From positions 1,824,001 through 1,888,000 of the forward strand of contig OZ254086.1 of the NCBI GenBank assembly GCA_965267575.1: a stretch of DNA of 64,000 nucleotides. Direction: 5' to 3'. The stretch comes from Calditrichales bacterium (GTDB lineage Bacteria > Calditrichota > Calditrichia > Calditrichales > J004). The translations under genes were made by a program, and so were the position numbers. Shown here piece after piece: positions 35,024 to 56,764 of the stretch; position 1 is the stretch's first letter; every line of letters starts with the position of its first letter. Under the pieces are notes generated by a model, which saw nothing but the letters and a program-made list of their open reading frames with translations, was not told where the DNA came from and searched no databases.

Positions 35024-36055
35024 ATGTGCCACCTCCGTTTCCGCAGCTCCGAAGCCAGCAGCAACCGGCCCTACCTGGAAGTAAAATACAAGATCGAATA
35101 CACCGCCAACTACTACCTGAAAGACCACCTGGGAAATATCAGGGTAACGGTGGATGAAAACGGCGACGTGGTCAGCCATGATGACTATTACCCCTTTGGG
35201 CTGCAGATGGCGGGGCGCTCCTTTAATGCCGGCACGGATAATGATATTTATAAGTACAATGGCAAGGAGCTGGATGATGAAGCCGGCATTAACTGGCATT
35301 ATTACGGGGCACGGTATTATGATGCAGTGATAGGGCGGTGGATGGCGGTTGATCCATTAGCTTACAAATATTATTCCGTCAGCCCGTATGTATATACTTT
35401 GAACAATCCAACGAAGTATATAGACCCAAATGGGATGGAAGTTCGTGGAGATAGTACAGACTTAGCACAAGTTGCTGAAAGTCTAAATAATGAAAATGAA
35501 GGCGCGAATGTAACTGTTGAAAAAAAGCCTGAAAAGAAAGTAGATGTTTGGGGAACAATTAAAAACTTCTTTTCTGGTTCAATAGAAGTCGCCTATACAA
35601 CAAATACTTACTTTGCTTTATCTACAAATGGAAGCAGTTTTAATTGGGGTGCAAATAAATTTACCTCGGCAATGTATGATGTGATAAATAGTCGAGATAT
35701 TATTTATGATGTGAAAATTTCTGAAAAATACAATGGCCCGGATAATGCTATTAAAGGGACTGATATAGCGTCACAATTAGGAGGTGGGTATTTTGATGAA
35801 AGAAGTGGAGGCGGAACCGTTTGGCTGTCGGGAGTTGGTACGCATAGCGAGTCAATAGGTGTAAGATTTATGCATGAAGCGATCGGACACGGACACCCGG
35901 TAACAGGTATAGGATGGGAAGGAAATGCCACACTTGTGAATCAGCACTACAATGGACGATACGATTCTGGTCACTACGGTTATCATCCTGTTGTCGGATG
36001 GAGATATATAAATTTATACAGGATGGAACAGGTGGGGAGGAAAGTACTTAAATAA
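35024..36055 (+). CDS. Orphan RHS core plus toxin tip (cassette 1), probably 5'-truncated
   Basis: YYLKDHLGNIR, DYYPFG, YKYNGKELD, YYGARYYD, IDPNG cleavage motif, AT-richer tip with HEAIGH. Confidence 0.85.
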   Translation: MCHLRFRSSEASSNRPYLEVKYKIEYTANYYLKDHLGNIRVTVDENGDVVSHDDYYPFGLQMAGRSFNAGTDNDIYKYNGKELDDEAGINWHYYGARYYDAVIGRWMAVDPLAYKYYSVSPYVYTLNNPTKYIDPNGMEVRGDSTDLAQVAESLNNENEGANVTVEKKPEKKVDVWGTIKNFFSGSIEVAYTTNTYFALSTNGSSFNWGANKFTSAMYDVINSRDIIYDVKISEKYNGPDNAIKGTDIASQLGGGYFDERSGGGTVWLSGVGTHSESIGVRFMHEAIGHGHPVTGIGWEGNATLVNQHYNGRYDSGHYGYHPVVGWRYINLYRMEQVGRKVLK

Positions 36056-37300
36056 TGGGGTTTTAGAAATGAATACTAAAAGCATCGTCAAAAAGAACAT
36101 TCTTATTATCTTTGGTATTTCTCTTTTAATCTCATCGAGCATTTTGATTTCTCAAAGTTTCAAAGATAATAAGTACAATAATAATAATATAAATAATGAA
36201 AATGTAATAAATAATTCAGGTTCTATTGATGGGATTGGAGTTCCATATTTTTACAAAGAACGGAGCATTTTTAGGACAACCCCGCAAGTACTTTTTGTAG
36301 TGATTTTTTCGATTCTCATGGGTTTTGTCTTTTTGTTCTTTCCCACCGAAGTAAAAGCTATTTTTTGTTATAATTTAAATCTGAAATATCTTATTGGCTA
36401 TTTAATTTTTGTCTTACTTTTTGCTTTTGCTATAAAATACTTTCATGTTAAAGTATTCTTTTATAACCACAATTTTTTATTTTTAAATGGTATTATTTTT
36501 TTGCTAATATTATTCTTGTTTTTAAGACTGTGGCGAATTAATCCGAGCAAACGAATAATATTTTTTATTAGTATTTTGTTATGTTTTTATCAAGGAATCG
36601 GACTACTGATTGAGTTGGGTAATTTTTTTGTACCATTATTTATCCACGAAGGTAAATGGCCGTTAGTAGATGGAAATTATATAGCAATATATGATTCATT
36701 CATGAATCACAAGTTTACGCTTGGATATACTCTGTTTAGATTACAAAATAATTTTCTTCTACTCTTTTCACTATTTTTTTTATTTAAGCTGAAACTTAAA
36801 GAATAAAATATCTAATTTTGTCATTTGTTTTTCGAGCTATTTTTGCTCTGAAACGGACATCCAGCTACAACTGGAGCGGCACGCTGGCCGAAGGGGATTA
36901 TGACCCCATGTACACCGATGAGCAGACCGTGGTGCTGAATCCTTACCAGTGGTACGAATGGGATGTGCTGGAAGCGGTCTCCATGTGGCACAGCGGCTAC
37001 GCCGGCAATTACGGAATGATCCTGATCGCAGCCAACGAAGACTCCCCCGGTTATGACGTCCGTTTCCGCAGCTCCGAAGCCAGCAGCAACCGGCCCTACC
37101 TGGAAGTAAAATACAAGATCGAATACACCGCCAACTACTACCTGAAAGACCACCTGGGAAATATCAGGGTAACGGTGGATGAAAACGGCGACGTGGTCAG
37201 CCATGATGACTATTACCCGTTTGGGCTTCAGATGGCGGGACGCTCCTTCAACGCCGGGACGGATAATGATATTTATAAATACAATGGCAAGGAGCTGGAT
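35034..37300 (+). repeat. 242-bp direct repeat at 35034-35275 and 37059-37300 (DNRLRE end plus RHS core start)
   Basis: Near-identical DNA encoding RFRSSEASSNRPYLEVKY...YKYNGKELD. Confidence 0.92.
36069..36806 (+). CDS. AT-rich membrane protein, candidate immunity for cassette 1
   Basis: Starts 13 bp after toxin stop; very AT-rich; multiple TM helices. Confidence 0.65.
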   Translation: MNTKSIVKKNILIIFGISLLISSSILISQSFKDNKYNNNNINNENVINNSGSIDGIGVPYFYKERSIFRTTPQVLFVVIFSILMGFVFLFFPTEVKAIFCYNLNLKYLIGYLIFVLLFAFAIKYFHVKVFFYNHNFLFLNGIIFLLILFLFLRLWRINPSKRIIFFISILLCFYQGIGLLIELGNFFVPLFIHEGKWPLVDGNYIAIYDSFMNHKFTLGYTLFRLQNNFLLLFSLFFLFKLKLKE

Positions 37301-37962
37301 ATGTATATAATTCACCCATTAATTATATAGATCCGATGGGTTTATCACCGGAAACAGATGAGATGATACGCCAATGGAGTAGTGAATGGGATGCTGTGTG
37401 GGGTCCCGCAAATGGAATGCTTCCGGGCTGGGATAGTTGGCATGGTTCCACCAATAGCTATTTGGAAAATTATCAAAATGACGCCGGCGGACATTGGGAA
37501 AGACAAGATTATGGAACATCGGCGGCTAACGACCCTATTACGTGGCATGGATATGATTGGATTTGGGCTGGCCCTTACGAAATTGGCTGGCTTGGGCTCT
37601 TATTAGAGGACATACCAGCAAGACATATTACTTTCAGAAATGGCAGTGTTTATGCTACAGACAGACGGGGGCCTGTTGGGACGTTTACCGTACATACAGG
37701 CATGCCTCCTGATGCGGGACTTCCCTCACTCAAACTGTTAAAAGGAAGCAAAGATGTAGCCGCACTGATTCAAATCGCGAAAAGAGCCAAAAAAACTGGT
37801 GTAACTGTTAAAGAGGCTAAGATTCTTTTAGAATGGGCAAGAGAATAAGGGCTTAAAACATCACAAGGAATTGAGCGCCATTTATCAAGAAATTTTAAAG
37901 ATTGGCATATTAGAATAGGCCGCACTAACCATATAAGAGTAAATAATTATCGTGGAAAGTAA
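36851..37962 (+). pseudogene. RHS cassette 2: DNRLRE-like fragment, internally deleted RHS core, toxin tip with nonsense codon
   Basis: Core jumps from KELD to YVYNSPINYIDPMG with a frameshift; tip interrupted by TAA at 37846-37848, frame then open to 37962. Confidence 0.8.
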
Positions 37963-37984
37963 TTTCGTTGAGCAGGAGGGTGTT

Positions 37985-38425
37985 ATGAAAGAAATTAATA
38001 TATCGCGTGGTTTTGCCAAAAAACACTACAAAGATATATTAAAACACGCCTTAGAACATTGTTCTTATTGTCTATATGTTGTGCAAGATTTTGAACTTGT
38101 AAATTCAAATGCATTGAAAATAATAAATAAAATGAGAATGAAGCTTGCAAAACAATATAAGGATTCGAAGTGGCCAGGAACTGAATTGTTAGATACGCAG
38201 GTCGATATTTTTATTCATATATTTGACTATGATACCTGCGAAATGCTAACCGGATTTGCCAGTGGCTTCCCTGCATGGCAGCATCCAGATTTACCTGAGG
38301 ATTTATGCCTATTGAGAGAAGATATGTCTCCATATTTCATATCAATTGCACACGAGCGTGATTTTTATTTCTTGTTACAAGACAATGAATTTGAACTGCT
38401 TAAACATAGGTTCCCCATGTTTTAA
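37985..38425 (+). CDS. Candidate immunity protein for cassette 2
   Basis: aggagg RBS before ATG 37985; AT-rich; WPGT and WQHPDLPEDL...SIAHE motifs; follows toxin tip. Confidence 0.75.
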   Translation: MKEINISRGFAKKHYKDILKHALEHCSYCLYVVQDFELVNSNALKIINKMRMKLAKQYKDSKWPGTELLDTQVDIFIHIFDYDTCEMLTGFASGFPAWQHPDLPEDLCLLREDMSPYFISIAHERDFYFLLQDNEFELLKHRFPMF

Positions 38426-38430
38426 AACTT

Positions 38431-39050
38431 TTGTATAAAGAAATGGACTCGCTGAAACAGGAACGGCGTCTTGCCCGGGCCGAGCTGGACGATTACGAGA
38501 ATAAAGCGTTGCTGAAATTTATGCGCCGTGGCAAAAAGCTGTTCCACCTGCCGGATGATATCGCCTATGCCGAAGCGGACTCCGCGGAAGGGGAAAACCA
38601 CGCCACCCTGAAACGGCGCCTGAAAACGATAGACGGCAAACAGACGCTGATCACGGGCATCAAATATCAAAAGCTGCAGAAGTTTGCGGCTGGTGCGGTG
38701 GTGCTGGACCCGACCATCGAGACATCGCTGGATGCGGTGGAAGATGTCTGGCTGGAAAATTCAGGCAACAAGAACTATTACAGCATGCTGCTGGTGGCCA
38801 AGGACCGCAACTATGCCAAGAAACGCTCAATCATCAAGTTTGACATCAGCAGCATCCCGGGCATGGCCACCATCCAGAGCGCATCGCTGAACATGTACTA
38901 CTTCAGCCGTGGCGGCAGCAGCAGTCAATATCCCTGGATCGATCGTCCTATTCGCACGCACCGGCTTTTAAAGGATTGGCAGGAAGCCTATGCCACCAGC
39001 ATCAAACGGACATCCGCTCAGAATTGGAGCGGCACACTGGCCGAAGGGGA
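38431..39050 (+). pseudogene. Fragment of RHS-associated protein with first half of a DNRLRE-like domain (cassette 3 arm, truncated)
   Basis: VVLDPT, EDVWL, RSIIKFDISSIP...IQSASLNMY, WQE; last 47 bp match 36851-36897. Confidence 0.7.
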
Positions 39051-39280
39051 ACGGCTCTTAAAACCTAAACACGCTAAGAGGCGTTTACTGCGCGTTTGTT
39101 GAGCGGGTCGTATAGCTCAAACTCAAGGCCCTGCGGGCCATACTGTCATAGCAGCTAAAAACGGCGGTAATTCTGCAACCCCATCGGGGTGTACCGGCAG
39201 GCCGCCGCGATGCGGCTGCTTCTTTTTCAGGTAACCTTTTCTATGACGGAATGCATCTACGATGCTCAAAACGTCGAAAG

Positions 39281-39545: not shown

Positions 39546-40097
39546 TCAAGGATTAAGTCCCAGGTCGCCAGCGACGGGTTTAAGGGCATCGACAACAAAC
39601 TCCGCGTGGCTGTCGAAATCCAGGTTCAGCTCTTCGGCGCCCTGACGCATTTCTTCGCGGCTTACTTTGGCGGCAAAGCGTTTGTCTTTCATTTTCTTTT
39701 TTACCGATTTGGCCGAAACCTGGCTGAGAGCCTTGTCCGGTTTTACAAGCGTAACGGCGGTTATAAAACCGCACAGTTCATCTACGGCAAACAGGGCTTT
39801 GGCCATGCGGCTTTCGCGCGGCACGCCCGTGTAGGTGGCGTGGCCCATAATGGCTTCGCGGATATCCTCGTCCACTCCCGCTTCGGTCAAAATTTTCTCG
39901 CCTTTGTAGGGATGTTCTTCGGGGAATTTCTCGTAATCAAAATCGTGCAGCAGCCCGGTGATGCCCCATTTTTCCACATCTTCATTCCATTTTTGGGCGT
40001 AAGCGCGCATGGCGGCTTCCACGGCATAGGCATGGCGCCGCAGGCTGTCCGTTTCCGTGTATTGATGCAATAATTCCAAAGCCGTACTACGATCCAT
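39546..40097 (-). CDS. HD-domain metal-dependent phosphohydrolase
   Basis: LRRHAYAVE, GLLHDFDYE, AVDELCG, KKKMKDKRFAA. Confidence 0.9.
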   Translation of the reverse strand: MDRSTALELLHQYTETDSLRRHAYAVEAAMRAYAQKWNEDVEKWGITGLLHDFDYEKFPEEHPYKGEKILTEAGVDEDIREAIMGHATYTGVPRESRMAKALFAVDELCGFITAVTLVKPDKALSQVSAKSVKKKMKDKRFAAKVSREEMRQGAEELNLDFDSHAEFVVDALKPVAGDLGLNP

Positions 40098-40108: not shown

Positions 40109-40864
40109 TTATCCGCAGAGCACGCTGCCGGCATTGATGTTCATTACCTCGCCGGTAATGGCCCGCGACTTATCCGATGCCAGAAAGGCGATGCCGTGGG
40201 CGATATCTTCCGCTTCCGGTATAAAACCCAGCGCCATCTTCTTTTTAAGTTTGGCTTCGTCTTTTTTCATTGTTTCCGCGGTCATGTCGGTTTTTACCCA
40301 GCCCGGCGCCACGCAGTTTATGCGGATGCCCAGATCGCCCAGTTCCGCGCACATGGATTTGCTGTAGCTGATAATCGCGCCTTTGGTGGCGGCATAATGC
40401 GCGTGGTAGGTTTCACCCACCTGCCCGGCCGTGGATGAAATATTAATGATCGAGCCTTTGATTTTGTGCTCCTTCATATGCCGGGCCAGCATGGTGGTAA
40501 AATAAAAGACGCTGTCCAGGTTTATCTGTACCATCTTGCGCCACTCGTCCACGGTAAACGTATCCAGGTGCGCTTCTTTCCAGATACCGGCGTTGTTAAC
40601 AAGTATGTCAATCTTTTCAAATTTGTCGACCACCTTATTGATAAACAGTTGCACTTCCTGGTAATCGCTTACATCGCACTCGGCAAAGAACACCGCGCCG
40701 GGGTAACGTTCGCACTCCTGCGAGAGCTGATCGGCTGCCCGGTAGTTTTTGTTGTAGTTAAAGGCCACATTCGCGCCAAGCTGCATAAACAATCGTACGC
40801 AAGCCGCACCAATACCGCGACTTCCGCCTGTTATCAGGACGTTCTTCCCGCTGAAGTCCAGCAT
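40109..40864 (-). CDS. SDR family oxidoreductase (FabG-like)
   Basis: TGGSRGIG, NNAG, YAATK, VAPG; ATG 40864 after aaggag. Confidence 0.92.
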   Translation of the reverse strand: MLDFSGKNVLITGGSRGIGAACVRLFMQLGANVAFNYNKNYRAADQLSQECERYPGAVFFAECDVSDYQEVQLFINKVVDKFEKIDILVNNAGIWKEAHLDTFTVDEWRKMVQINLDSVFYFTTMLARHMKEHKIKGSIINISSTAGQVGETYHAHYAATKGAIISYSKSMCAELGDLGIRINCVAPGWVKTDMTAETMKKDEAKLKKKMALGFIPEAEDIAHGIAFLASDKSRAITGEVMNINAGSVLCG

Positions 40865-41103
40865 ACATTCTCCTTTTGATAGGGTATAGGGCAAGAGTTA
40901 AAGTGGTCGCAACGGAATCGGCAGCCAACTCATTCCGTCATGGTAATGACTAACAAAATAAACTGACAAAATCAAATTGAAATCGGCAAAAATATTGTAG
41001 CGATTTTCGATTTAAAACAGCTATTATTGATATATGTCATTACGGCCATCTTCGGGAATTGGGATTTTGTTGACCTTTTTAACGCAAACACAGCGGGGGA
41101 ATT

Positions 41104-42129
41104 ATGCAATCCTTTAAGGAATCCGGCATCGAAGTTTTTTCAACCTGTCCGCAATCCAAGGACGTGGACCGGGAAAAGTATCTGCAAAACGTTAAAGACG
41201 TGGCGCGCTGGAGCGAACAGGCCGGTTGCCGGGGCATTCTGGTTTACACGGATAACGGGATTGTCGATCCCTGGCCGGTAGCCCAGGTCATCATCGAAAA
41301 TACAAACGAGCTGGCGCCGCTGATCGCCGTGCAGCCCGTGTACATGCATCCCTATACCGTGGCCAAAATGATATCCACGTTCGGCTACCTGCACAATCGC
41401 CGTGTTTACCTGAACATGGTGGCCGGCGGATTCAAAACCGATCTGCTGGCGCTGAACGATCAGACGCCGCACGACCAGCGCTACGAACGGCTGACCGAGT
41501 ACACGCAGATCATCATGCAACTGCTGCAGGCCCAAAAAGGCGTTACCTATAAAGGTGAATTTTACAAGGTGGAAAACCTGCGTATGACGCCGCCGCTGGC
41601 CGACGCGCTGCTGCCCGGTATCTTTGTCTCCGGATCGTCTCCGGCCGGTTTGGCCGCTGCCAAAGAGATGGGCGCAACGGCGGTGCAATACCCCAAACCG
41701 TACCAGGATTACAAGGATGATCCGCCCGATCCGGCGATGAATTGCGGCGTGCGCGTGGGCATCATTGCCCGCGACAGCCACGAGGAAGCCTGGAAAGTGG
41801 CACACGAACGTTTCCCCGGCGACCGGCAGGGTGAGATCGCTCACAAGCTGGCCATGAAAGTCTCCGACTCGCACTGGCACAAACAGCTTTCCGACATGGC
41901 CGACCAGACCGCATCCGGCGAAACGCCCTATTGGATGTATCCTTTCAAAAATTACAAAACATTCTGCCCCTACCTGGTTGGCAGTTATAAGGAAGTAGCC
42001 GATGAACTGGCCGGCTACATTTCCGTGGGCTACAAAACATTTATCCTCGATATCCCGCCCGACAAGGATGAGCTGAACTACATCAACACGGTGTTCAGCA
42101 TGGCGGCCAAAAAGGAGAAGGCTTCATGA
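41104..42129 (+). CDS. LLM-class flavin-dependent monooxygenase
   Basis: PLIAVQP, LNMVAGG, YKGEFY, VSGSSPAG, LVGSYKEVA. Confidence 0.88.
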   Translation: MQSFKESGIEVFSTCPQSKDVDREKYLQNVKDVARWSEQAGCRGILVYTDNGIVDPWPVAQVIIENTNELAPLIAVQPVYMHPYTVAKMISTFGYLHNRRVYLNMVAGGFKTDLLALNDQTPHDQRYERLTEYTQIIMQLLQAQKGVTYKGEFYKVENLRMTPPLADALLPGIFVSGSSPAGLAAAKEMGATAVQYPKPYQDYKDDPPDPAMNCGVRVGIIARDSHEEAWKVAHERFPGDRQGEIAHKLAMKVSDSHWHKQLSDMADQTASGETPYWMYPFKNYKTFCPYLVGSYKEVADELAGYISVGYKTFILDIPPDKDELNYINTVFSMAAKKEKAS

Positions 42130-43709
42130 GCAGATTGCTGCACAGCTGGGTAACGGAGCAAGCCCAAAAACAACCCGATGCCCCGGCCATAACCCTGAAA
42201 AACGAAACGCTTACCTACACCCAACTGGATAAACGCTCTTCGCGGATTGCCGCCCTGCTGATGCAGCATGGCTGCCAAAAAGGCGACCGCGTCGGCTTGT
42301 TGATGAACAAAGACATTACGGCGATCTGCGCCATAATCGGTGTATTGAAAGCGGGCGGCGCCTATGTGCCGCTGGACCCTTCGAGTCCGGCCAGCCGCCT
42401 GGAGCACATGCTGCTGTCGGCCGAGCCGCCGATCATACTTGCCGCCGGAAAGGTGGATAAAATTGTCAGCGAGATTTATGCCTCCGGCAAGAGCAGCGCC
42501 GGCATCGGCCTGCTGGATGAGGCGGCCGATAAAGTCGAATCCGATAAGGTGATGTTCCGCTCGGCTGACGTGGCCTCAGCCCTGGAAAAAATATCCGCTG
42601 AAGTCACGCCAGAAGATCTGGCTTATATACTTTTTACCTCCGGCTCAACCGGCGTACCCAAAGGTGTGGCGATCACCCACAGCAACGTGGCCCATTTTGT
42701 GGAGTGGGCCGTCGACTATTTCGGCATGGATGCGTCGGACAAAACCTCCGGATTTTTCCCGCTGCATTTTGACTTGAGTGTGTTTGACATTTTTTGCAGT
42801 TTTGCCGCGGGGGCGCATTTGCACATTGTGCCGGCAGAAGCCACTTTGCTGCCCAACAAACTGGCCGCTTTCATGCGCGACAGCGAATTGACGCAGTGGT
42901 TCAGTGTCCCGTCGATATTGAACTACATGGCCAAATTCGATGTTGTCAAACAGGACGACATGCCAAAGCTTAAACGTCTGCTGTGGTGCGGCGAAGTGTT
43001 TCCGACGCCGCCGCTGATCTACTGGATGAAAAAGCTGCCGCATGTGGCTTTTACCAATCTTTACGGGCCCACGGAGGCGACCATTGCCAGCAGTTATTAC
43101 ACACTGCCGCGGGTGCCCGCCGCCGAAACGGACCCCGTGCCGATCGGTATACCCTGCGCCGGCGAAGAGTTGGTGATCATGAACGGCGATTTGAAAGAAG
43201 TGCCGCGCGGTGAAACCGGCGATCTCTATATTAAGGGTGTCGGGCTGAGCCCGGGCTACTGGCGTGACAAGGACAAAACAGCCGCCGCCTTCCTGACCGA
43301 TCCGCAAACAGGGGAGAGGATTTACAAGACCGGCGATTTGGCCTATCTTGGGGATGACAACCTGATCTATTTCCTGGGCCGCGCGGATTCGCAAATTAAG
43401 AGCCGCGGCTACCGCATTGAATTAGGTGAAATTGAAACGGCCCTGAATGCGTTACGCGATCTTCGTGAGGTGGCCGTTGTGGCCGTGGACAGCGGAGGAT
43501 TTGAAGGCGCCACCATTTGCTGCGCTTATGCCGCGGTAGACAGCAAGGACGTGGAGCCCAAGCAGGTGCGCAAGGAGTTGCAGAAAAACCTGCCGTCGTA
43601 CATGATTCCAACGGAGTGGATGGTTTTGGATGTGCTGCCCAAAAACGTAAACGGCAAAATCGATCGTAAAAACCTGAGACAACAATTCGAGAAAAAACTG
43701 GAAAGCTAA
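42126..43709 (+). CDS. Stand-alone amino acid adenylation enzyme (DltA-like)
   Basis: YILFTSGSTGVPKG, FDLSV, WCGE, NLYGPTE, YKTGD, GYRIELGEIE, NGKIDR. Confidence 0.92.
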   Translation: MSRLLHSWVTEQAQKQPDAPAITLKNETLTYTQLDKRSSRIAALLMQHGCQKGDRVGLLMNKDITAICAIIGVLKAGGAYVPLDPSSPASRLEHMLLSAEPPIILAAGKVDKIVSEIYASGKSSAGIGLLDEAADKVESDKVMFRSADVASALEKISAEVTPEDLAYILFTSGSTGVPKGVAITHSNVAHFVEWAVDYFGMDASDKTSGFFPLHFDLSVFDIFCSFAAGAHLHIVPAEATLLPNKLAAFMRDSELTQWFSVPSILNYMAKFDVVKQDDMPKLKRLLWCGEVFPTPPLIYWMKKLPHVAFTNLYGPTEATIASSYYTLPRVPAAETDPVPIGIPCAGEELVIMNGDLKEVPRGETGDLYIKGVGLSPGYWRDKDKTAAAFLTDPQTGERIYKTGDLAYLGDDNLIYFLGRADSQIKSRGYRIELGEIETALNALRDLREVAVVAVDSGGFEGATICCAYAAVDSKDVEPKQVRKELQKNLPSYMIPTEWMVLDVLPKNVNGKIDRKNLRQQFEKKLES

Positions 43710-43711
43710 GC

Positions 43712-44821
43712 ATGTATCATTTTAAGCGTCTTGCTCTGTGGGTGTTGATTCTGGCAAATGTCGCCTGTTCCAATCCTGAAGAGGACATAAAAGAGATCAC
43801 CCTGCCGGAAGGATTTCGCATCGGCATTTTTGCTGAGGATGTAAAAGGCGCGCGTTCCATGACCCGCGGCGATGAAGGCACTATTTTTGTCGGCACGCGG
43901 CACTCCGGAAATGTCTATGCCCTGCAGGACACTGACGGCGACAACAAGATCGATAAGCAGTATACGCTGATGAGCGATCTGTTTATGCCCAATGGCGTTG
44001 CTTACCGTAACGGCGATCTCTACGTGGCCGAGGTGAATAAAGTCTGGCGCCTGCCGGATATTGAAAATTCCCTCGATAATCCCAATCCCGAATTGCTTTA
44101 TGACAACCTGCCCGATGAAAAAAGCCATGGCTGGAAATACATTGCCTTCGGGCCCGATGACAAGCTGTACATTCCCATCGGCGCGCCCTGCAATGTCTGC
44201 GAGCGCGACGACGAACGCTATGCTACCATTAACCGCATCAACCCCGATGGCAGCGGCTTTGAGATCTACGCCCGCGGTGTGCGCAACAGCGTCGGCTTTG
44301 ACTGGCACCCGGAAACCGGCGAGCTGTGGTTTACCGACAACGGCCGCGACTGGATGGGTGACGATATTCCGCCTGATGAATTGAACCACGCGCCGCAGCC
44401 CGGTCTTCATTTTGGATTTCCCTACTGGCATGGCAGCGGTGTAAAGGACCCCGAGTTTGGCGACAAGATGGCGCTGGAAGAAGTGACAAAGCCCGTGCAG
44501 GATTTGGGTCCGCATGTGGCGGCGCTGGGTATGAATTTTTATGATGGCGATATGTTTCCTCCGGAATACCGCCATCAGGTGTTTATTGCCGAGCACGGCT
44601 CCTGGAACCGCACCGAGCCCATTGGCTATCGCGTTACACTTGTGCGCCTGGATGATGAAGGCAACTCCCTGGGCTATGAAGTTTTTGCCGAGGGCTGGCT
44701 GAAAGAAGACGGCACGGTAATCGGCCGGCCGGTGGACGTTTTTGAAATGCCCGACGGGTCGCTGCTGGTTTCCGATGATTACGCCAGCCTGATCTACAGA
44801 ATCTGGTACGAAGGCAGCTGA
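43712..44821 (+). CDS. PQQ-dependent sugar/sorbosone dehydrogenase family lipoprotein
   Basis: Lipobox-like NVAC; GAPCNVC, GVRNSVG, DNGRD, HGSWNR, GRPVDV. Confidence 0.88.
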   Translation: MYHFKRLALWVLILANVACSNPEEDIKEITLPEGFRIGIFAEDVKGARSMTRGDEGTIFVGTRHSGNVYALQDTDGDNKIDKQYTLMSDLFMPNGVAYRNGDLYVAEVNKVWRLPDIENSLDNPNPELLYDNLPDEKSHGWKYIAFGPDDKLYIPIGAPCNVCERDDERYATINRINPDGSGFEIYARGVRNSVGFDWHPETGELWFTDNGRDWMGDDIPPDELNHAPQPGLHFGFPYWHGSGVKDPEFGDKMALEEVTKPVQDLGPHVAALGMNFYDGDMFPPEYRHQVFIAEHGSWNRTEPIGYRVTLVRLDDEGNSLGYEVFAEGWLKEDGTVIGRPVDVFEMPDGSLLVSDDYASLIYRIWYEGS

Positions 44822-45741
44822 TGGCGAAACGCCTTAATATACTTCTTGTGGCTGAGGAGTCGGCCGGCATTCAGATGCTGCGCGCCATTCAAAAGTCGGA
44901 TCATAACCTGGTGGCGGTGCTGGCTTCGGAAAAGAAAGCGCAGGGCAGCAGTGCCTCTGTGTGGGCCACCGCGCAAAAACTGGATGTGCGTCTTTGGTCC
45001 GCCAAAAATGTCAAACAGGCCGGGTTTGCCGAGACGCTGCGCGAAGAAGCGATCGACATTTTATTAAATGTACACTCACTTTACATCATTAACGAAGAGG
45101 TGCTGAAAGCGCCGCGCATCGGAGCCTTTAATATTCATCCCGGGCCGCTGCCGCACATGGCCGGGCTGAATGCGCCGAGCTGGGCCATTTACAAGGGTCA
45201 CAAAACCCACGCCGTCACCATTCACAAAATGGAGCCGGGCATCGATACGGGCGCCATCGTTTATCAGAAAAGTTTTCCAATTGGCGATCGTGATACGGGT
45301 TTAAGCGTCGCCCTGCAGTGCATCAGGGAAGGCCTGCCGCTTTTGCAAAAGCTGCTGGATACGGCGGCTGAAGATCCGCGGGCCATACCGGCGCAAAAGC
45401 AGGACCTGGATAAAAGAAACTACTACAGCAAACAGGTGCCGCAGGAGGGAAAAATCGATTGGAACAAGCCGGCAGGTGATGTCCACAACTTTATCCGCGC
45501 CTGCGATTACGCGCCGTTTCCCAGCCCCTGGGGCCATCCGCGGGTGGAGTGTGGCGGCACAGACGTAACGATTACGCAAAGCGCGCTTACGGGAAAAAGT
45601 TGTGATGCCGCCCCCGGCACAATCCTCCGTATGGATGAAAAAACAGTTGCTGCCTGCGCTGATGAGTGGCTGGAAATAAAAAAGGCGCAGCTTGACGGAA
45701 GAAAAATTGACCCGGCAGAGTTGCCGAATCTTTGTATTTAA
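44821..45741 (+). CDS. Formyltransferase (Fmt-like, N10-formyl-THF dependent)
   Basis: FNIHPGPLP, IDTG, IDWNK...IRA. Confidence 0.88.
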   Translation: MAKRLNILLVAEESAGIQMLRAIQKSDHNLVAVLASEKKAQGSSASVWATAQKLDVRLWSAKNVKQAGFAETLREEAIDILLNVHSLYIINEEVLKAPRIGAFNIHPGPLPHMAGLNAPSWAIYKGHKTHAVTIHKMEPGIDTGAIVYQKSFPIGDRDTGLSVALQCIREGLPLLQKLLDTAAEDPRAIPAQKQDLDKRNYYSKQVPQEGKIDWNKPAGDVHNFIRACDYAPFPSPWGHPRVECGGTDVTITQSALTGKSCDAAPGTILRMDEKTVAACADEWLEIKKAQLDGRKIDPAELPNLCI

Positions 45742-45767
45742 TCTGAAAGACTAAGCGGGAGACAGGA

Positions 45768-46019
45768 ATGTCATCTATACAAGATGAGATTATTCAGTTT
45801 TTTGATGAAGAACTGAATATCGGAGTGCCTTCGGTAGACACGGACCTGGTTGAAGAGGGGCTTCTGGATTCACTGACGTTTGTGCAGTTGCTGTTCCATT
45901 TCGAGCAGCAGTATGGCATTGAGATGGATCTTGATGAGCTGGAAATCGATACATTGCGCTCCGTGGAACGTATCGCCAATTTTTTGATGTCGCAGGACGG
46001 CATGCACCGCGCCGGCTGA
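45768..46019 (+). CDS. Carrier protein (DltC-like)
   Basis: DLVEEGLLDSL phosphopantetheine site; acidic 83 aa. Confidence 0.9.
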   Translation: MSSIQDEIIQFFDEELNIGVPSVDTDLVEEGLLDSLTFVQLLFHFEQQYGIEMDLDELEIDTLRSVERIANFLMSQDGMHRAG

Positions 46020-46041
46020 ACCGAAGAATGAGGAAGAGAGA

Positions 46042-47148
46042 ATGACAAGCTATCCGAAAAATATTCGCCCGTTTAAAGAAGCGGACCTTGATGCCGTTTG
46101 CGATTTGTACCAGAAGATTCAGCGTGATCCAAAGCAGAAGGCGCCGGCAGGACTGCGCAGTGATTTCAAAAGCTATTTTCTGGATAATGTCTGGAGCGAT
46201 CCGGAGATACCGTCTCTTGTTTATGAAGAGAACGGGAAAATTATTGGATTTATTGGCAGCCACGTGCGGCCTTTGCAGTACAACGGCAAGCGTGTCCGCG
46301 CGGCCTACAGCGGCCAGCTTGTGAGTGATCCGCAGGGTCGTGCCCGTGCCGCCGGCGCCTTCCTGATGAAGGCTTACATCGAAGGCCCGCAGGATATAAC
46401 GATGACCGATGGAGCCACCGCCGCCGTGGCCCAGATCTGGACGCAACTCGGTGGTGATATCGCGCATGCCCGCTGCCTGCGCTGGACCCGGATACTAAGG
46501 CCCACGCGCTTTTTCAGCAGCAAGCTGGGCGAGCGTAACATGCTGGCGGTATCAGCGGCGCTTAAGCCTTTCAGCACCCTGCTCGATCCCATTGCCGGCA
46601 AGCTGATGAGCAGCGAATACAAACCGTCTGCAAAAAAACAATCCGATGAAAAGCTTACCGTAAAAACCTGGCTGGAAAACGTTGACAGTATTTATCCGGC
46701 GTCGCAGCTCAAGGGTAATTATTCTGAGGACCAGTTGAGCTGGTTGCTGGAAAAGGTCAGCGCGCTGGTTTCCCGCGGACGTTTTGAGGAGCACGTTGTG
46801 CGCGATGAAAAAGAACGCGTAATAGGCTGGTTTATGTATTTTCTGGCCGACGATGGTCAGGCCCAGGTTTTGCAGATCGCCGCGAAACCAAAACTGCAGA
46901 AGGCGGTGCTGGAGGATTTGTTTAATCATGCCTATCAGCGCGGATGCGTGGCCCTTCAGGGGCGCGTAGAGCCCTCTTTTATGCAGTCGCTGGATGACGT
47001 GGGCTGTATGTTCCGCTATTGGGGACCGTCCACCCTCGTGCACAGCCGCGATCCCGAGTTGCTTTTAGCCTACCAGAGCGGTCACGATTTCCTCACCCGC
47101 CTTGACGGTGAGTGGTGGATGGCCTTTCACCGTGATGAATACCGCTAG
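46042..47148 (+). CDS. GNAT-fold acyltransferase
   Basis: IRPFKEADL, GKIIGFIG, LVSDPQGRARAAG; length fits tandem GNAT domains. Confidence 0.7.
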   Translation: MTSYPKNIRPFKEADLDAVCDLYQKIQRDPKQKAPAGLRSDFKSYFLDNVWSDPEIPSLVYEENGKIIGFIGSHVRPLQYNGKRVRAAYSGQLVSDPQGRARAAGAFLMKAYIEGPQDITMTDGATAAVAQIWTQLGGDIAHARCLRWTRILRPTRFFSSKLGERNMLAVSAALKPFSTLLDPIAGKLMSSEYKPSAKKQSDEKLTVKTWLENVDSIYPASQLKGNYSEDQLSWLLEKVSALVSRGRFEEHVVRDEKERVIGWFMYFLADDGQAQVLQIAAKPKLQKAVLEDLFNHAYQRGCVALQGRVEPSFMQSLDDVGCMFRYWGPSTLVHSRDPELLLAYQSGHDFLTRLDGEWWMAFHRDEYR

Positions 47149-47366
47149 TTGAATTTGGAACTGGGAATTGGGGAATTAAGAATTGCGCATTTGAGATTCC
47201 TGTTTTTGACTGCGCTAAACCGACCGACATATCCCTTGCCCGTTTGGCGTTGGCGAATTGTTGGCTACGGGCAAAATTCTTCATACTTTCATTTTTTGTT
47301 AAACGATTAAAAACCTTTTTCCTTAACTTTCTCCGTATTTGGTCTGTCCCGTAAAAAAGTAAAATT

Positions 47367-49106
47367 ATGAACAAGAAGAACCTTATTAATGTGTTGGAGG
47401 ATATCGCCGTAATGCTCGAGTTGAAAGGCGAGAATCCGTTTAAGTCAATTGCGTATACCAATGCCGCCCGCGCCCTCGAGCAGGCCGAAGGCGACGTTTT
47501 AGAGATGATCCGCAACGGCGATATCAGCAAGCTGAAGGGAGTTGGTGATGCTATCTCCAAAAAGCTGCAAACGCTCGTCACGGAAGGACGCCTGCCTTAT
47601 TATGAAGACCTGAAAGAACAGTTTCCGCCGGGCTTGCTTGATATGTTGGAAATTCCCGGAATGGGGCCTAAAAAGGTAAAGATGCTGTTTGAGGACATGC
47701 ACATCGATACGATTGAAAAGCTGGAGAAAGCCGCTAAAGAGGACAAATTGAGCGAGCTGGAAGGGTTTGGTAAAAAGACGCAGCAGAAGATTTTGCAGGG
47801 TATCGAGCAGTACCGCAAATACAGCGCCCGTTTTCGCCTCAGCGTAGCCCTTGACGAAGCACAGAAAATTTTGCCTTACCTCAAAAAGAATAAAAAGATT
47901 AAGCGAATTGAAGTGGCCGGCAGTCTGCGGCGTTATAAGGAATCGGCCAAAGATATTGATATCGTTGCTTCCTGCTCGCCGGATGATCGTGAACAGGTAA
48001 TGGACTATTTTTGCGATTTTGAAGATAAAAAAAGAATCATCGGCCACGGGGAAACCAAGTCCAGTATTTTGCTTTTTTCCGGGATGGGCTGCGATCTGCG
48101 GCTGGTCGATGACGATGAATTTCCCTATGCGCTGCACCATTTTACCGGCAGCCGTGAGCATAACACCGCCATGCGCGGACGGGCCAAAAAAATGAATCTG
48201 ACGATGAACGAATACGGCTTGTTCAAAAAAGATGACAGCCGCCTGGATTGTAAGGACGAGAGTGAAATTTTTGCGGCACTGAAACTTTCATACATTCCGC
48301 CGGAGCTGCGCGAGGACATGGGTGAGATTGATGCGGCGGAAAACGACTCCCTGCCGGAGCTTGTTACGGAAGCTGACATCCAGGGCATTTTGCATGCCCA
48401 TTCCACATGGAGCGACGGAGCGGAGTCAATTAAAACGATGGCTGAAGAGGTTCGTTCGCGGGGTTACAGCTATCTGGGTATTAGCGATCACAGTAAATCG
48501 GTTATTTACGCCAACGGCCTGAATGAAGACCGTGTGAAACGTCAGCAGGAAGAGATCGATAAGCTGAATGAGGAGATGCACGGTTTCAGAATATTTAAAG
48601 GCATTGAGGTCGATATCCTGCAAAAAGGCAAGCTGGACTATGATGACAAAACGCTGGAATCCTTCGATTTTGTGATTGCCGCCGTGCATCAACCCTATAA
48701 TTTATCGGAAAAAGAGCAGACAGAACGTATCTGCGAAGCATTGCGACATCCGGCCGTAAGCATGCTGGCGCACCCCACCGGCCGCCTGATACTCAGCCGC
48801 GAGGGCTATGCCGTTGATATGGCCAAAGTTCTTGAGTGCGCGGCAAAAGAGGGCAAGGCCGTTGAAATAAACGCCCATCCCAAGAGGCTTGATCTGGACT
48901 GGCGCTGGGGACGCCTGGCGCGCGACCTGGGCCTGATGACATCTGTGAATCCCGATGCCCATAAAATTGAACATCTGGAATACGTCAAGCTGGGCGTGGG
49001 CATTGCCCGTAAGGGATGGTTTGGAGCGGACAAAGTGCTTAACACACGAAAAAGTGCCGAACTTGAAAAATGGTTTAAGAATGCACACTCTGGAAAAAAG
49101 AGCTGA
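47367..49106 (+). CDS. polX: DNA polymerase X with PHP domain
   Basis: GENPFK, AGSLRR, DID, HFTGS, LHAHSTWSDG, SDHS, NPDAH. Confidence 0.95.
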   Translation: MNKKNLINVLEDIAVMLELKGENPFKSIAYTNAARALEQAEGDVLEMIRNGDISKLKGVGDAISKKLQTLVTEGRLPYYEDLKEQFPPGLLDMLEIPGMGPKKVKMLFEDMHIDTIEKLEKAAKEDKLSELEGFGKKTQQKILQGIEQYRKYSARFRLSVALDEAQKILPYLKKNKKIKRIEVAGSLRRYKESAKDIDIVASCSPDDREQVMDYFCDFEDKKRIIGHGETKSSILLFSGMGCDLRLVDDDEFPYALHHFTGSREHNTAMRGRAKKMNLTMNEYGLFKKDDSRLDCKDESEIFAALKLSYIPPELREDMGEIDAAENDSLPELVTEADIQGILHAHSTWSDGAESIKTMAEEVRSRGYSYLGISDHSKSVIYANGLNEDRVKRQQEEIDKLNEEMHGFRIFKGIEVDILQKGKLDYDDKTLESFDFVIAAVHQPYNLSEKEQTERICEALRHPAVSMLAHPTGRLILSREGYAVDMAKVLECAAKEGKAVEINAHPKRLDLDWRWGRLARDLGLMTSVNPDAHKIEHLEYVKLGVGIARKGWFGADKVLNTRKSAELEKWFKNAHSGKKS

Positions 49107-49160: not shown

Positions 49161-50213
49161 ATGGCTTATACGATTGCAGTGGATGCGATGGGTGGCGATC
49201 ATGCGCCCCATGAAGTGGTAAAGGGTGTTGTGGAAGCCTTGAATGAAGAACCGGATTTGCGTGTCATCCTCGTAGGTGACGAGAAGGCTATTCGCCGGGA
49301 ACTTGCCGCCAACAATTACTCCGATGATCGCGTGGATATTGTTCATACCGATCAATCTGTTCCCATGGATGCTTCACCTAAGCCGGCGCTGGAGCAACAT
49401 CCCAACGCGTCTATTGTCCTGGCGATGAAGCAGGTGAACAGCGGTACGGCCATGGCCTGCGTGAGTGCCGGTAACACGGGCGCTACCGTTCTTGCGGCAG
49501 CACAGAATCTGCAGATGATTGAGGGGCTGGAACGTTCCGCGCTGGCTGCGATTTATCCCACCGCCAAGTTCACCCCCGAGAGCCGCGGTCACGCGCTTAT
49601 GCTCGATGTAGGCGCGACAATCAAGTGCAACGCCAAGCAGCTTGTCCACTTTGCCATTATGGGCCATTACTACATGCAAAAGATTATGGGTATTGATGCG
49701 CCGCGCCTGGGTTTGCTTAACAACGGTGAAGAAGCAAGCAAGGGCGGACCGGTTCTTACCCAGACCTACAAATACCTCAAAGAGATCAAGATGATCAACT
49801 TTGCCGGAAACGCTGAAGGCAAGGACATTCCCAAAGGCACCTTTGATATTATTGTCTGCGAAGGATTTGTAGGCAACGTGGTGTTGAAGCTTTTGGAAGG
49901 CGTGGCTGAGGTGGTCAAGGACACCGGCAAATACGCCTTTAAAAAGAAGTTTACCTGGAAAATCGGTTTGGCCCTCTTGCGCCAGGGTGTTCACAAGCTG
50001 AAAACAAAAACGGATTATTCAGAATATGGCGGCGCACCAATTCTGGGCTTTAACAAGATTGTTATCAAGGCCCACGGGCGCTCCAACGCCAAGGCCGTAA
50101 AAAATGCGGTTAAAGTGGCTCTGCGCGCCGTGAAACAAGACATCATCACGCAGATATCGGGCTCTATACATAAGTTTAATGAAGAGCACCAGATTGATTT
50201 TGTGGAAGTATAG
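49161..50213 (+). CDS. plsX: Phosphate acyltransferase
   Basis: IAVDAMGGDHAP, SAGNTGA, LDVGA, GFVGNVVLK, YGGAPILG, KAHGRS. Confidence 0.95.
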   Translation: MAYTIAVDAMGGDHAPHEVVKGVVEALNEEPDLRVILVGDEKAIRRELAANNYSDDRVDIVHTDQSVPMDASPKPALEQHPNASIVLAMKQVNSGTAMACVSAGNTGATVLAAAQNLQMIEGLERSALAAIYPTAKFTPESRGHALMLDVGATIKCNAKQLVHFAIMGHYYMQKIMGIDAPRLGLLNNGEEASKGGPVLTQTYKYLKEIKMINFAGNAEGKDIPKGTFDIIVCEGFVGNVVLKLLEGVAEVVKDTGKYAFKKKFTWKIGLALLRQGVHKLKTKTDYSEYGGAPILGFNKIVIKAHGRSNAKAVKNAVKVALRAVKQDIITQISGSIHKFNEEHQIDFVEV

Positions 50214-55273: not shown

Positions 55274-56764
55274 ATGCACGATTGGGGTATGGCCGGCTGG
55301 ATTCTGATCGGTCTTTACATGACGGTGACTTTGGTGTTCGTGGTACGCGGTGCCGTGCGCATCAAAAACATGTCCGATTACGCCCTCGGTAATATCTTCT
55401 TTTCGCCGGTGGCCGTCGGGCTGGCCCTCGCCGCATCGATGACCTCCGCCGCCACCTTTATCATCAATCCCGGTTTTGTGGCTATTTATGGCGTCACTGC
55501 CGTCATCTCGTACGCCTTTGTTCTGCCTGTCGCGGCGATGACCTCACTGGTGATTCTCACCAAAAGCTTCCGCGCCCACGGCAGCACAGTCAAGGCGCTT
55601 AGCATGGCGCAATGGATGTCGACGCGCTACAAATCCCCCGGCTACGGTTTTTTCTTCGCCATCCTCTCGCTGCTGCTTATCACCTTCATCGTGCTGATTT
55701 GTGTCGGTTTGACCAAGGTGATCTCCAAAACCCTGGACATATCGGAAATGACCGCGCTGGCCGGTATCGTGATTTTCATTTTTGGCTATATGATGTACGG
55801 CGGCGCCAACTCGATGGTCTATACCAACACCATCCAGGCGCTGGTAATGATCGTTGTGGCCATTATTTTGCTGACCAGCGGCTACGAGCATTTCAGCAAC
55901 GGCGTCCACGGTTTACTGGATAAGCTGGCTGCGATCGATCCGGCCCTTGCCCAACCGCTAAATAAAAACAGTTTCCTTTTCCGCGACTACTTCGAAATCG
56001 GTTTTGTTCAAATTGTGGTGGGCATTGCCATTGTCTGCCAGCCGCACATCATCACCAAGTCGCTTTTGCTCAAAGACGACAAAGGCGTCAACCGCTATCT
56101 CACCGTCGCTGTGGTTACGGAAATCCTCTTCTTTCTCGTGGTCATCGCCGGGCTTTACGCGCGTTTTGCTTTTCCGGATCTCACCTTCAACGGTGAACCG
56201 TTAAAGATGGACGGGATCATTTCGGCCTACGTGGTTAAGGAGTTCCCCGTTTACATCGGTCTCGTGGTTGTGCTGGGCCTCATTTCCGCCGGCATTTCCA
56301 CGCTGGAAGGCCTGATCCAGGCGCTGGCTACCACCATCACAGAAGACATCATCCGGCCTGTAAGCCGCAAGCTGGACAAAGTTCGGTTTATTGACAAAAA
56401 CGGCATTCTTATAAATAAAGGTGTGATTGCCTTGTTGGCGCTGGTGAGCATCTGGCTCTCCTGGGACCAGTTGGTCAATCCCAAGCTGAGCGTGGCCATT
56501 TTTGCCCAGAACGGGGTTTACGCTTACTTCGCCGCAGCGTTCTTGCCCATCGTGCTGGGTATGTTTGTAAAAGAGCTGCCGCGTGTGGTACCGATTGCCG
56601 CTTCGGTGACGGCTGTAATCGTCCATTTCACCATGTATTATGCCAAACTGCCGGTGCCTTTCAGCGCGGCCACGGGTGAAAATCCCGGTGTGGCGGCGGC
56701 GGTTGCCATCATCATTTCGGCGGTTGTTGCCTTTCACCTGATGCTGGTTTACAGGGGGAAATAG
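55274..56764 (+). CDS. Sodium:solute symporter family protein
   Basis: About 13 TM helices, SMTSAATFI, YGGANS..YTNTIQ, QPHI, SAGIST. Confidence 0.88.
   Translation: MHDWGMAGWILIGLYMTVTLVFVVRGAVRIKNMSDYALGNIFFSPVAVGLALAASMTSAATFIINPGFVAIYGVTAVISYAFVLPVAAMTSLVILTKSFRAHGSTVKALSMAQWMSTRYKSPGYGFFFAILSLLLITFIVLICVGLTKVISKTLDISEMTALAGIVIFIFGYMMYGGANSMVYTNTIQALVMIVVAIILLTSGYEHFSNGVHGLLDKLAAIDPALAQPLNKNSFLFRDYFEIGFVQIVVGIAIVCQPHIITKSLLLKDDKGVNRYLTVAVVTEILFFLVVIAGLYARFAFPDLTFNGEPLKMDGIISAYVVKEFPVYIGLVVVLGLISAGISTLEGLIQALATTITEDIIRPVSRKLDKVRFIDKNGILINKGVIALLALVSIWLSWDQLVNPKLSVAIFAQNGVYAYFAAAFLPIVLGMFVKELPRVVPIAASVTAVIVHFTMYYAKLPVPFSAATGENPGVAAAVAIIISAVVAFHLMLVYRGK

Follow-up and report, generated by a model that had tools for sequence, protein, structure and literature searches.

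A widespread, uncharacterized carrier-protein cassette with a predicted tandem-GNAT transferase and putative alternative capping enzymes in a Calditrichales genome

Described carrier-protein systems and the Calditrichales operon

Carrier-protein aminoacylation of the cell envelope is known, to our knowledge, from two systems, Dlt and AlmEFG, both of which are important for the charge of the cell surface and for antimicrobial-peptide resistance. We analyzed a 64,000-nucleotide stretch of the genome of a Calditrichales bacterium (assembly GCA_965267575.1, contig OZ254086.1, positions 1,824,001 to 1,888,000; hereafter the window), in which six tightly coupled genes encode a luciferase-like monooxygenase (LLM), a stand-alone adenylation enzyme, a dehydrogenase-like protein, a formyltransferase, a small carrier protein and a tandem-GNAT protein. 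Judged from gene content and conservation, five of these genes (41104-43709 and 44821-47148, counted from the first letter of the window) are one copy of a widespread, uncharacterized carrier-protein cassette.

In Vibrio cholerae, AlmE, AlmF and AlmG add glycine to lipid A by a comparable scheme, in which a ligase loads a small carrier and a separate transferase passes the residue to the envelope without DltB or DltD, as set out in the available part of the report (PMC4278540). At the Calditrichales locus, the transferase is predicted to be a tandem GNAT rather than an LpxL-family protein, a monooxygenase and a predicted N-capping enzyme are added, and the acceptor is likely an amino sugar instead of lipid A. 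The first two steps of the cassette would parallel those of AlmEFG and Dlt. The adenylation enzyme and the carrier also resemble DltA and DltC of the DltABCD system, but transfer here would take place in the cytoplasm via the GNAT and not across the membrane via an MBOAT protein.

Two further systems were compared by description. MbtK is the GNAT of the mycobactin acylation module. In this module, MbtK, MbtL, MbtM and MbtN follow the same logic as the cassette, with a ligase that loads a carrier, a flavoenzyme that modifies the tethered group and a GNAT that delivers it to an amine (roles of MbtL, MbtM and MbtN as given in the accessible portion of PMC11633376). The mycobactin module differs in its cargo, which is a fatty acyl chain, in its tailoring by an acyl-carrier-protein (acyl-ACP) dehydrogenase, and in its acceptor, a siderophore lysine. 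In the O-antigen cluster of V. cholerae O1, the adenylate-forming enzyme RfbL and the carrier RfbK, encoded within a polysaccharide cluster, make the N-acyl group of an amino sugar (PMC12208996, in the part available); their cargo is 2,4-dihydroxybutanoate and not an amino acid, and their partner enzymes differ. The cassette appears to be a member of none of these: AlmEFG, Dlt, the Mbt module or the RfbL/RfbK branch. A first-pass annotation of this locus, made from the sequence, knew of no characterized pathway with the same gene set, and our literature search agrees with it in having found no published description, although most subscription journals lay outside the search, so that this is no proof of absence. 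The accessible part of the lipocone paper (PMC12419801) likewise contains no description of the cassette.

The six genes of the operon are as follows.

41104-42129, + strand: LLM, a flavin mononucleotide-type, distantly SsuD-like monooxygenase (Bac_luciferase); core member
42126-43709, + strand: stand-alone adenylation enzyme, DltA/AlmE-like (AMP-binding and AMP-binding_C); core member
43712-44821, + strand: exported GSDH/sorbosone-dehydrogenase-like beta-propeller protein (GSDH/DUF7133); passenger
44821-45741, + strand: Fmt/ArnA-type formyltransferase (Formyl_trans_N and Formyl_trans_C), predicted capping enzyme of the cassette
45768-46019, + strand: carrier protein of 83 amino acids (aa), with the phosphopantetheine serine in LLDSL (PP-binding); core member
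46042-47148, + strand: 368-aa tandem-GNAT acyltransferase of an unnamed family (weak Acetyltransf_1/Acetyltransf_9), predicted off-loading enzyme

Conservation of the cassette and its predicted capping enzymes

The coupling of the six genes is as the first-pass annotation had described it, with, in order, an ATGA overlap, a 2-bp gap, a TGATG overlap, a 26-bp gap and a 22-bp gap. The motifs to which it had drawn attention are present in the translations (FDLSV, WFSVPS, WCGE and GPTEATIA in the adenylation enzyme, EEGLLDS in the carrier), and its statement that condensation, thioesterase and MBOAT domains are missing holds in Pfam for the six genes and for 55 other open reading frames (ORFs) of the window. 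A nonribosomal peptide synthetase (NRPS) was rejected on this ground, since an adenylation domain is present but neither a condensation nor a thioesterase domain occurs in the operon or the window. None of the six operon proteins matches any defense family in PADLOC.

To describe the family, 76 loci were collected via the GNAT protein from species-representative genomes and searched by tblastn with the six window proteins, the LLM being called at 150 bits or more, the adenylation enzyme at 300 or more and the GNAT at 80 or more. LLM, adenylation enzyme and GNAT occur together in 44 of the 76 loci (hereafter the core loci), and the carrier was found in 41 of these 44, so that all four genes are present in 41 of the 76. 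The gene set singled out at first pass thus has a co-conserved core, and the window carries all four of its genes, LLM, adenylation enzyme, carrier and GNAT, on one strand and tightly packed. Identity to the window proteins is 49-64% for the LLM, 48-58% in most loci for the adenylation enzyme (two degraded loci have 35-37%), 31-52% for the carrier (plus 55% over one 44-aa partial match), 36-55% for the formyltransferase, and mostly 31-41% over the full length for the GNAT (26% in one degraded locus). Some of the remaining 32 loci are short contigs or broken or frameshifted copies (e.g., L037, L069 and L070), and in about twenty of the 32 the GNAT stands without the trio.

Gene order is tight. 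The LLM gene lies immediately 5' of the adenylation gene in 38 of the 44 core loci, the adenylation gene 5' of the carrier gene also in 38, and the carrier gene 5' of the GNAT gene in 27. If the inserted dehydrogenase-like gene is ignored, the order of the window (LLM, adenylation enzyme, formyltransferase, carrier, GNAT) is common only to the Azospirillum locus L033. The hosts of the 76 loci are mostly Actinomycetota (Pseudonocardia, Actinomycetospora, Solirubrobacterales, Gaiellaceae and Acidimicrobiales), and others include one Pirellulaceae, one Azospirillum, Gammaproteobacteria and Methylomirabilota.

The dehydrogenase-like protein, which the first-pass annotation had included in the gene set, combines a GSDH match (66.8 bits) and DUF7133 in Pfam with a lipoprotein-like N-terminus, the signal having been judged by eye. 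By tblastn its gene is absent from all 76 GNAT-seeded loci, and hence from all 44 core loci. From the other side, a metagenome scan covered the loci of the best 80 of 560 relatives of the dehydrogenase (49-67% identity; individual loci of 1.4-17 kb, 675 kb altogether), and none of these 80 loci holds an LLM, adenylation, formyltransferase, carrier or GNAT gene at E ≤ 1e-6. The dehydrogenase was rejected as a member of the pathway on these two counts, and we take its gene to be a local passenger, physically in the operon and outside the conserved gene set. Its best match in 40 relatives of the host genome is 32% identical. Because its GC content (0.546) is similar to that of the cassette genes, it may have arrived together with the inserted block.

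Fmt-type enzymes act on a carrier-held aminoacyl group (LgrA), on an aminoacyl-tRNA (Fmt) or on a sugar amine (ArnA). The formyltransferase of the window is an Fmt-type enzyme like the F domain of LgrA, ArnA and Fmt, here in free-standing form. It matches Formyl_trans_N with 73.8 bits and Formyl_trans_C with 51.5 bits, each above the Pfam cut-off, and falls below the NCBIfam equivalogs ArnA (129.4 bits against 777) and Fmt (103 against 201.5). Among solved structures it is closest to ArnA (101.6 bits) and Fmt (80.8 bits), and N-x-H and D-T-G, which we take to be the formyltransferase motifs, are visible in the translation. In the window cassette it is the only predicted capping enzyme. Among the 44 core loci, a formyltransferase gene occurs in 21 and a NodU/CmcH-type carbamoyltransferase gene in 15, no locus has both, and 8 have neither; related sequences are non-independent, so that this exclusivity is a pattern and not a statistic.

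The distribution of the two types was mapped on a quick maximum-likelihood tree of the adenylation enzyme with 43 rows. L016 and L057, which had no ORF long enough for the length filter, are not included, and the L009 row forms a long branch (length 10) that is unreliable and probably represents the wrong paralogue. On this tree the formyl/carbamoyl label needs at least three changes. Formyl- and carbamoyl-type cassettes are tree neighbors within Solirubrobacterales, where the carbamoyl clade of Solirubrobacteraceae lies beside the formyl-type L028, and within Pseudonocardiaceae, where that of Actinomycetospora lies beside formyl-type Pseudonocardia. This swapping and mutual exclusion suggest that the formyl- and carbamoyltransferases replace each other at a single step, the simplest candidate for which is capping of the same amine.

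Gene fusions connect the members of the cassette. Among long relatives of the LLM, Pfam identified a full LLM-adenylation fusion (P0124, 883 aa) and two partial ones (P0126 and P0129), a formyltransferase-LLM fusion (P0121, 705 aa), and a fusion of a DegT sugar aminotransferase to an LLM (P0123, 760 aa). Six of the best 150 representatives of the GNAT family are extended at the N-terminus by about 100 residues, and in four of them (P0156, P0158, P0160 and P0164) Pfam finds a PP-binding domain in the extension. The carrier portion of P0158 can be aligned with the carrier of the window over the DS site (36% over 45 residues). Of all the evidence in this analysis, the fusions argue most strongly that the GNAT draws its donor from the carrier and that the monooxygenase and the formyltransferase work with the adenylation enzyme. 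A further long protein, P0122, in which an LLM is joined to part of an AcrB-type transporter, was rejected as probably an artefact.

A second type of cassette was observed at L004, L015, L025 and L065. Here, a gene of the same tandem-GNAT family (L004 about 4405-5466; L015 8815-11379; L025 10001-11056; L065 9952-11055) lies beside a class I/II aminotransferase gene and a different AMP-binding enzyme, which has 28-29% identity to that of the window and a pocket of the type DYN[PA]TTMR. An asparagine-synthase-like gene is also present in L004 and L015.

Predicted chemistry on the carrier protein

Taken as a whole, and read from the genes, the cassette would work by the following mechanism, which we hold with moderate confidence. 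The stand-alone adenylation enzyme, as its family and pocket residues indicate, would activate a small alpha-amino acid and load it as a thioester on the 83-aa carrier. The formyltransferase would cap the free amino group, on the carrier or possibly after transfer, a step for which sister cassettes would use the carbamoyltransferase; the capping role is assigned because of the exclusive either/or pattern and the fusions. The LLM, presumably of two-component type and served by a separate flavin reductase, would oxidize the tethered residue. Our guess for the site of oxidation is the alpha-carbon, by analogy with the MOX domain of MtaG and MelG, and the N-cap would then be needed for stability of the product. 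Finally, the tandem GNAT would take the acyl group from the pantetheine arm of the carrier and put it on an amine, likely that of an amino sugar for a cell-surface polysaccharide; the carrier is assigned as donor because of the carrier-GNAT fusions, and the acceptor because of gene neighborhoods elsewhere. If true, this would be a third, mechanistically different route of envelope aminoacylation, cytoplasmic and dependent on a tandem GNAT, with capping and oxidation on the carrier. The cassette family also provides a testable case of a GNAT whose donor is a carrier protein, and of formyl and carbamoyl caps that can replace each other. Much of the pathway drawn at first pass, in which a small amino acid is loaded, formylated and/or oxygenated and then transferred by the tandem GNAT, keeps its footing in the predicted pocket, in the co-conserved core with its capping enzyme and in the fusions; the dehydrogenase drops out of the gene set.

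The adenylation enzyme passes the model of the amino-acid adenylation domain (TIGR01733, 386.2 bits against a cut-off of 317.4). Its ten Stachelhaus positions, placed from the A4, A5 and A10 motifs, give the pocket code DLFFLCLIAK. Of 55 aligned homologues, 30 have exactly this code and 45 have the type D-L-x-F-x-C-L-I/V-A-K, the other ten being a different adenylation enzyme. The enzyme has the equivalents of D235 and K517, the acidic residue and the lysine by which the alpha-amino and carboxyl groups are held. At nine aligned positions, the code matches AlmE at six, DltA (3dhv) at five, including the cysteine, and the prolyl-carrier ligase 6o6e at four. AlmE is a glycine carrier ligase, according to the part of PMC4278540 available, and its structure 4oxi matches the whole adenylation enzyme at 197 bits and the pocket segment at 62 bits. 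The best scorer over the whole pocket segment is the prolyl-carrier ligase with 74 bits, so that among small amino acids, the predicted substrate class, glycine is only the leading guess, followed by alanine.

The carrier matches PP-binding in Pfam with 39.5 bits; across 22 homologues its S35 is invariant and its D34 nearly so, and its match to the OlsHI ACP model is sub-threshold (34.6 bits against 130). One phosphopantetheinyl transferase and one flavin reductase are encoded elsewhere in the genome.

The first-pass label "Dlt-like" stands as a resemblance of the adenylation enzyme and the carrier, and goes too far if taken as membership of the families. True D-alanylation of teichoic-acid-like polymers would agree with the DltA-like motifs, including the cysteine of WCGE, and DltA and DltC are the best named NCBIfam equivalog or subfamily models for the two proteins. 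Both remain under the cut-offs, however: the adenylation enzyme under those of DltA (TIGR01734, 322.7 against 559.85 bits; NF003417, 340.9 against 476 bits) and the carrier under those of DltC (NF003464, 34.7 against 68 bits; TIGR01688, 29.7 against 52.35 bits). In a Dlt pathway, moreover, the monooxygenase, the formyltransferase and the GNAT would have no role, and a protein with a type IX secretion system (T9SS) sorting domain encoded in the window points to a diderm host. The host genome, a single contig that is 98.2% complete, has no match to DltB/MBOAT (PF03062, for which control genomes matched) or to DltD (PF04914); a true Dlt system was rejected on this ground, and we consider it extremely improbable.

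The LLM scores 109.4 bits against Bac_luciferase (Pfam cut-off 27.9) and is below the SsuD equivalog (TIGR03565, 112.9 bits against 518.2; the NCBIfam cut-offs for SsuD are 510-518). A flavin reductase gene adjoins the cassette in 3 of the 44 core loci, L056 among them. In the myxothiazol and melithiazol proteins MtaG and MelG, also compared by description, a luciferase-like domain (MOX) is joined to a glycine-activating adenylation domain and alpha-hydroxylates carrier-bound glycine, as stated in the portion of PMC11411415 that is accessible, and the LLM-adenylation fusions of the cassette family parallel this joining. MtaG and MelG differ in that MOX lies inside a multimodular NRPS and the chain is released as a terminal amide, whereas the cassette encodes separate proteins.

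A more specific version of the mechanism can be formulated, which is tentative and in our estimate doubtful. The cassettes would install a glycan decoration of a class not yet described, an N-capped, alpha-oxidized glycyl group put on an amino sugar by a tandem GNAT that reads a carrier-protein thioester rather than acyl-CoA, this group being N-formyl-alpha-hydroxyglycyl in the formyl-type cassettes and ureidoglycolyl-like in the carbamoyl-type ones. The cap would be required to stabilize the hydroxylated glycine, so that the formyl and carbamoyl enzymes would replace each other and never co-occur. In the host genome, the module would have entered a distant phylum with type IX secretion and gained there the exported, PQQ-type GSDH-like protein, which might act on the decorated polymer outside the cell.

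The GNAT protein is poorly covered by named families. In Pfam it reaches 26.4 bits for Acetyltransf_1 (cut-off 20.7), with no single stretch passing, and 23.9 bits for Acetyltransf_9 (cut-off 25); it has no match in NCBIfam, and a sequence search of the PDB gave only one chance-level match (E 0.42). A word-indexed search found 580 relatives at E ≤ 0.001, the best non-self match being 45% identical and almost all of them annotated "hypothetical"; the matches in the ESM Atlas are only "hypothetical" or "putative GNAT" clusters. The family is nevertheless large, with 2311 clusters of 50% identity at E ≤ 0.001 (1282 at E ≤ 1e-30) in a profile search of 1.84 billion representatives, and spans Actinomycetota, Planctomycetota, Pseudomonadota, Methylomirabilota and the Calditrichales host lineage. 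An AlphaFold2 model built from 22 sequences (pLDDT 89.6, pTM 0.88) has two GNAT halves connected by helices and matches two-GNAT enzymes over residues 1-357. The top Foldseek matches are N-myristoyltransferases and an Eis-like Bacillus enzyme (E about 1e-12 to 1e-13, TM about 0.5), and the structural matches also include amino-sugar N-acetyltransferases and MshD. Model and matches bear out the tandem GNAT named at first pass: the chain is predicted to contain two GNAT folds, and the fold does not reveal the acceptor.

Two ATP-grasp associations were observed in this family. P0237 (801 aa) joins a GNAT-family member and an ATP-grasp domain in one chain, and at L043:5444-6460 a gene for a PylC-like ATP-grasp protein is found close to the cassette; these may represent another way to extend the transferred group.

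Gene neighborhoods, the acceptor and the origin of the block

Neighboring genes were taken from ORFs chosen by their GC content at third codon positions (GC3), by which some genes were missed, so that neighbor counts are lower bounds. The first-pass annotation had raised the possibility that polysaccharide genes adjoin the cassette in other genomes, and they do so in 8 of 16 Pfam-annotated cassette loci (L001, L002, L007, L008, L024, L034, L046 and L056), which lie inside polysaccharide clusters. Neighbors in these clusters are DegT, NTP-transferase, 4,6-dehydratase/epimerase, Bac_transf, Wzy_C, flippase, GT2/GT4 and polysaccharide deacetylase genes. By tblastn with nine queries, two or more polysaccharide-type matches are present in at least 15 of the 44 core loci, and one or more in at least 25. 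The GNAT genes that stand without the trio are also found among sugar genes: amid NeuB, NTP-transferase and dehydratase genes of nonulosonic-acid/polysaccharide type (L045), amid a CapD-like dehydratase and a UDP-GlcNAc 2-epimerase (L060), and amid Bac_transf, deacetylase and flippase genes (L015). These two kinds of neighborhood and the DegT-LLM fusion make an amino sugar, acylated at its amine, the likely acceptor. The cassette family probably marks undescribed sugar decorations in many soil bacteria.

Several observations weigh against this acceptor or against the proposed mechanism at large. No polysaccharide gene is present among the scanned ORFs of the window (Pfam), and the nearest strong DegT gene of the genome is about 244 kb from the cassette. 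With the same nine queries, 19 of the 44 core loci have no polysaccharide-type match within about 10 kb, and L012, L014, L020, L041 and L043 lie outside glycan clusters. The cassette adjoins an MFS transporter gene at L012, lasso-peptide-like genes at L010 and phosphonate genes in the Methylomirabilota locus L066, and the Actinomycetospora cassettes have a siderophore-interacting protein gene nearby. As to the chemistry, the F domain of LgrA is absent among the PDB matches of the formyltransferase at E ≤ 1e-6, and the enzyme stands equally near to Fmt and to the sugar-amine formyltransferase ArnA, so that it may act on the sugar or after transfer. Most of the fusion proteins were each found on one metagenome contig, frameshifts could have created some of them artificially, and P0128, a formyltransferase-LLM-adenylation protein, is fragmentary, with domain fragments only. 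Finally, sampling seeded with the GNAT cannot reveal how often the trio pairs with other transferases.

Part of this evidence would suit the production of a free small molecule, in which a capped, oxidized amino acid, such as an N-formyl-N-hydroxy or alpha-hydroxy amino-acid derivative, would be coupled by the GNAT to a soluble amine and would serve as a chelator, a signal or an antimetabolite. The window and the 19 core loci that lack glycan genes are consistent with it, as are the siderophore-interacting genes of Actinomycetospora, the lasso-peptide-like genes of L010, and the MFS transporter and ornithine-cyclodeaminase-like genes near the Pirellulaceae copy, and an adenylation enzyme with a carrier and tailoring enzymes is a common natural-product layout. 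The polysaccharide genes around half of the annotated loci, the DegT-LLM fusion and the trio-less GNAT homologues amid sugar-nucleotide genes argue for the amino-sugar acceptor instead, and no exporter or regulator is conserved with the core. We regard the free molecule as rather unlikely.

A second alternative is an AlmEFG-like pathway, in which lipid A or a different membrane lipid would receive the aminoacyl group and the tandem GNAT would replace AlmG. The pocket is closest to that of AlmE, which also gives the PDB match of 197 bits; an LPG_synthase_TM gene adjoins the cassette in the Azospirillum locus L033; the block of the window adjoins plsX and is near fabG/fabH-like genes; and N-acylation of lipid precursors from acyl-ACP has precedents among GNAT-type enzymes (OlsB and N-acyl amino acid synthases). 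The plsX neighborhood, however, is a conserved flank that is present in relatives without the cassette, and lipid genes are not recurrent neighbors in the 76 loci. No LpxL/AlmG-type acyltransferase was found in the operon or among the scanned ORFs of the window, and AlmEFG has no monooxygenase or formyltransferase. We consider this pathway improbable, and retain transfer to an amino sugar as the preferred reading.

Other genes recur near the cassette. FemAB-like Acetyltransf_6 genes lie beside it at L007:12872-14002, L010:15028-16209, L033:8704-9957 and L034:7652-8728, that of L033 between the carrier and the GNAT, which hints at a second aminoacyl transfer step. Genes for an APH-type kinase, a polysaccharide deacetylase and a methyltransferase are found within 10 kb of some formyl-type cassettes, the set being present by tblastn in 3 of the 44 core loci (L001:12540-13349; L008:12778-14169; L011:12726-14045). 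In L020 (13981-15078) and other Actinomycetospora loci, an alanine dehydrogenase gene is convergent to the carrier gene; this neighbor and the siderophore-interacting protein gene could bear on the substrate or be a coincidence. The phosphonate genes of L066 (2778-6631) form a tailoring set with a phosphoenolpyruvate mutase-nucleotidyltransferase fusion, a thiamine-pyrophosphate decarboxylase and a metallo-beta-lactamase-fold gene.

In the host genome, the operon forms a block between the following conserved flanks, with gene families assigned by Pfam.

39546-40097, - strand: HD-domain gene, left conserved flank, outside the cassette
40109-40894, - strand: SDR/FabG-like gene, left conserved flank, outside the cassette
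40895-41103: 209-bp intergenic region 5' of the operon, forming the left edge of the inserted block
47149-47366: 218-bp intergenic region, right edge of the inserted block
47367-49106, + strand: PolX, right conserved flank, outside the cassette
49161-50213, + strand: PlsX, right conserved flank, outside the cassette

The HD(-)-SDR(-) flank is present in the same orientation in three relatives of the same order (57-70% identity), in which the PolX(+)-PlsX(+) flank is also syntenic (53-66% identity), and none of the six genes is found in the slot between the flanks in these three relatives. In L174 and L175 this slot (5.0-7.3 kb; L174:4894-9962 and L175:2783-10099 between SDR and PolX) is occupied by an FKBP gene, a RecQ helicase or T9SS cargo protein gene, a gene for a 402-aa protein without assignment, and a HAD hydrolase gene. 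A full-length match to the GNAT was found only in the host genome among 41 relatives and 86 genomes of the phylum, two other matches in the phylum being weak (E 4e-5 and 9e-4; 24-26% identity over half of the protein). The GC content of the cassette genes is 0.54-0.56 (0.48 for the carrier) against 0.49 for the window, and the nearest relatives of the adenylation enzyme on the tree are Actinomycetota and Pirellulaceae copies, though branch support is not strong. From these comparisons we conclude that the block is an acquired island and that the cassette reached this genome by horizontal transfer, so that the host copy clearly illustrates how the whole module can move together, here into a phylum whose other 85 searched genomes lack it. 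A scan for promoters and terminators, including the 209-bp upstream region, gave matches no more frequent than in shuffled sequences.

The slot between SDR and PolX is itself variable, with the RecQ helicase of one relative and a 1173-aa T9SS cargo protein of another at the same place. Another apparently variable region of the window lies at 35024-39102, where a series of small + strand ORFs, two of which match CBM96 or a disaggregatase repeat and the others no family, includes a stretch with a GC content of 0.38 at 36-38 kb. At 824-3367 the window encodes a chitinase-like GH18 protein that combines an fn3 domain with a T9SS C-terminal sorting domain, which suggests that the host is a diderm belonging to the FCB-type lineages. 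A gene for a sodium:solute symporter is followed directly by the gene of a second stand-alone AMP-binding ligase at 55274-58257, and an alpha/beta hydrolase gene is located at 60408-61358; these genes are apparently unrelated to the cassette.

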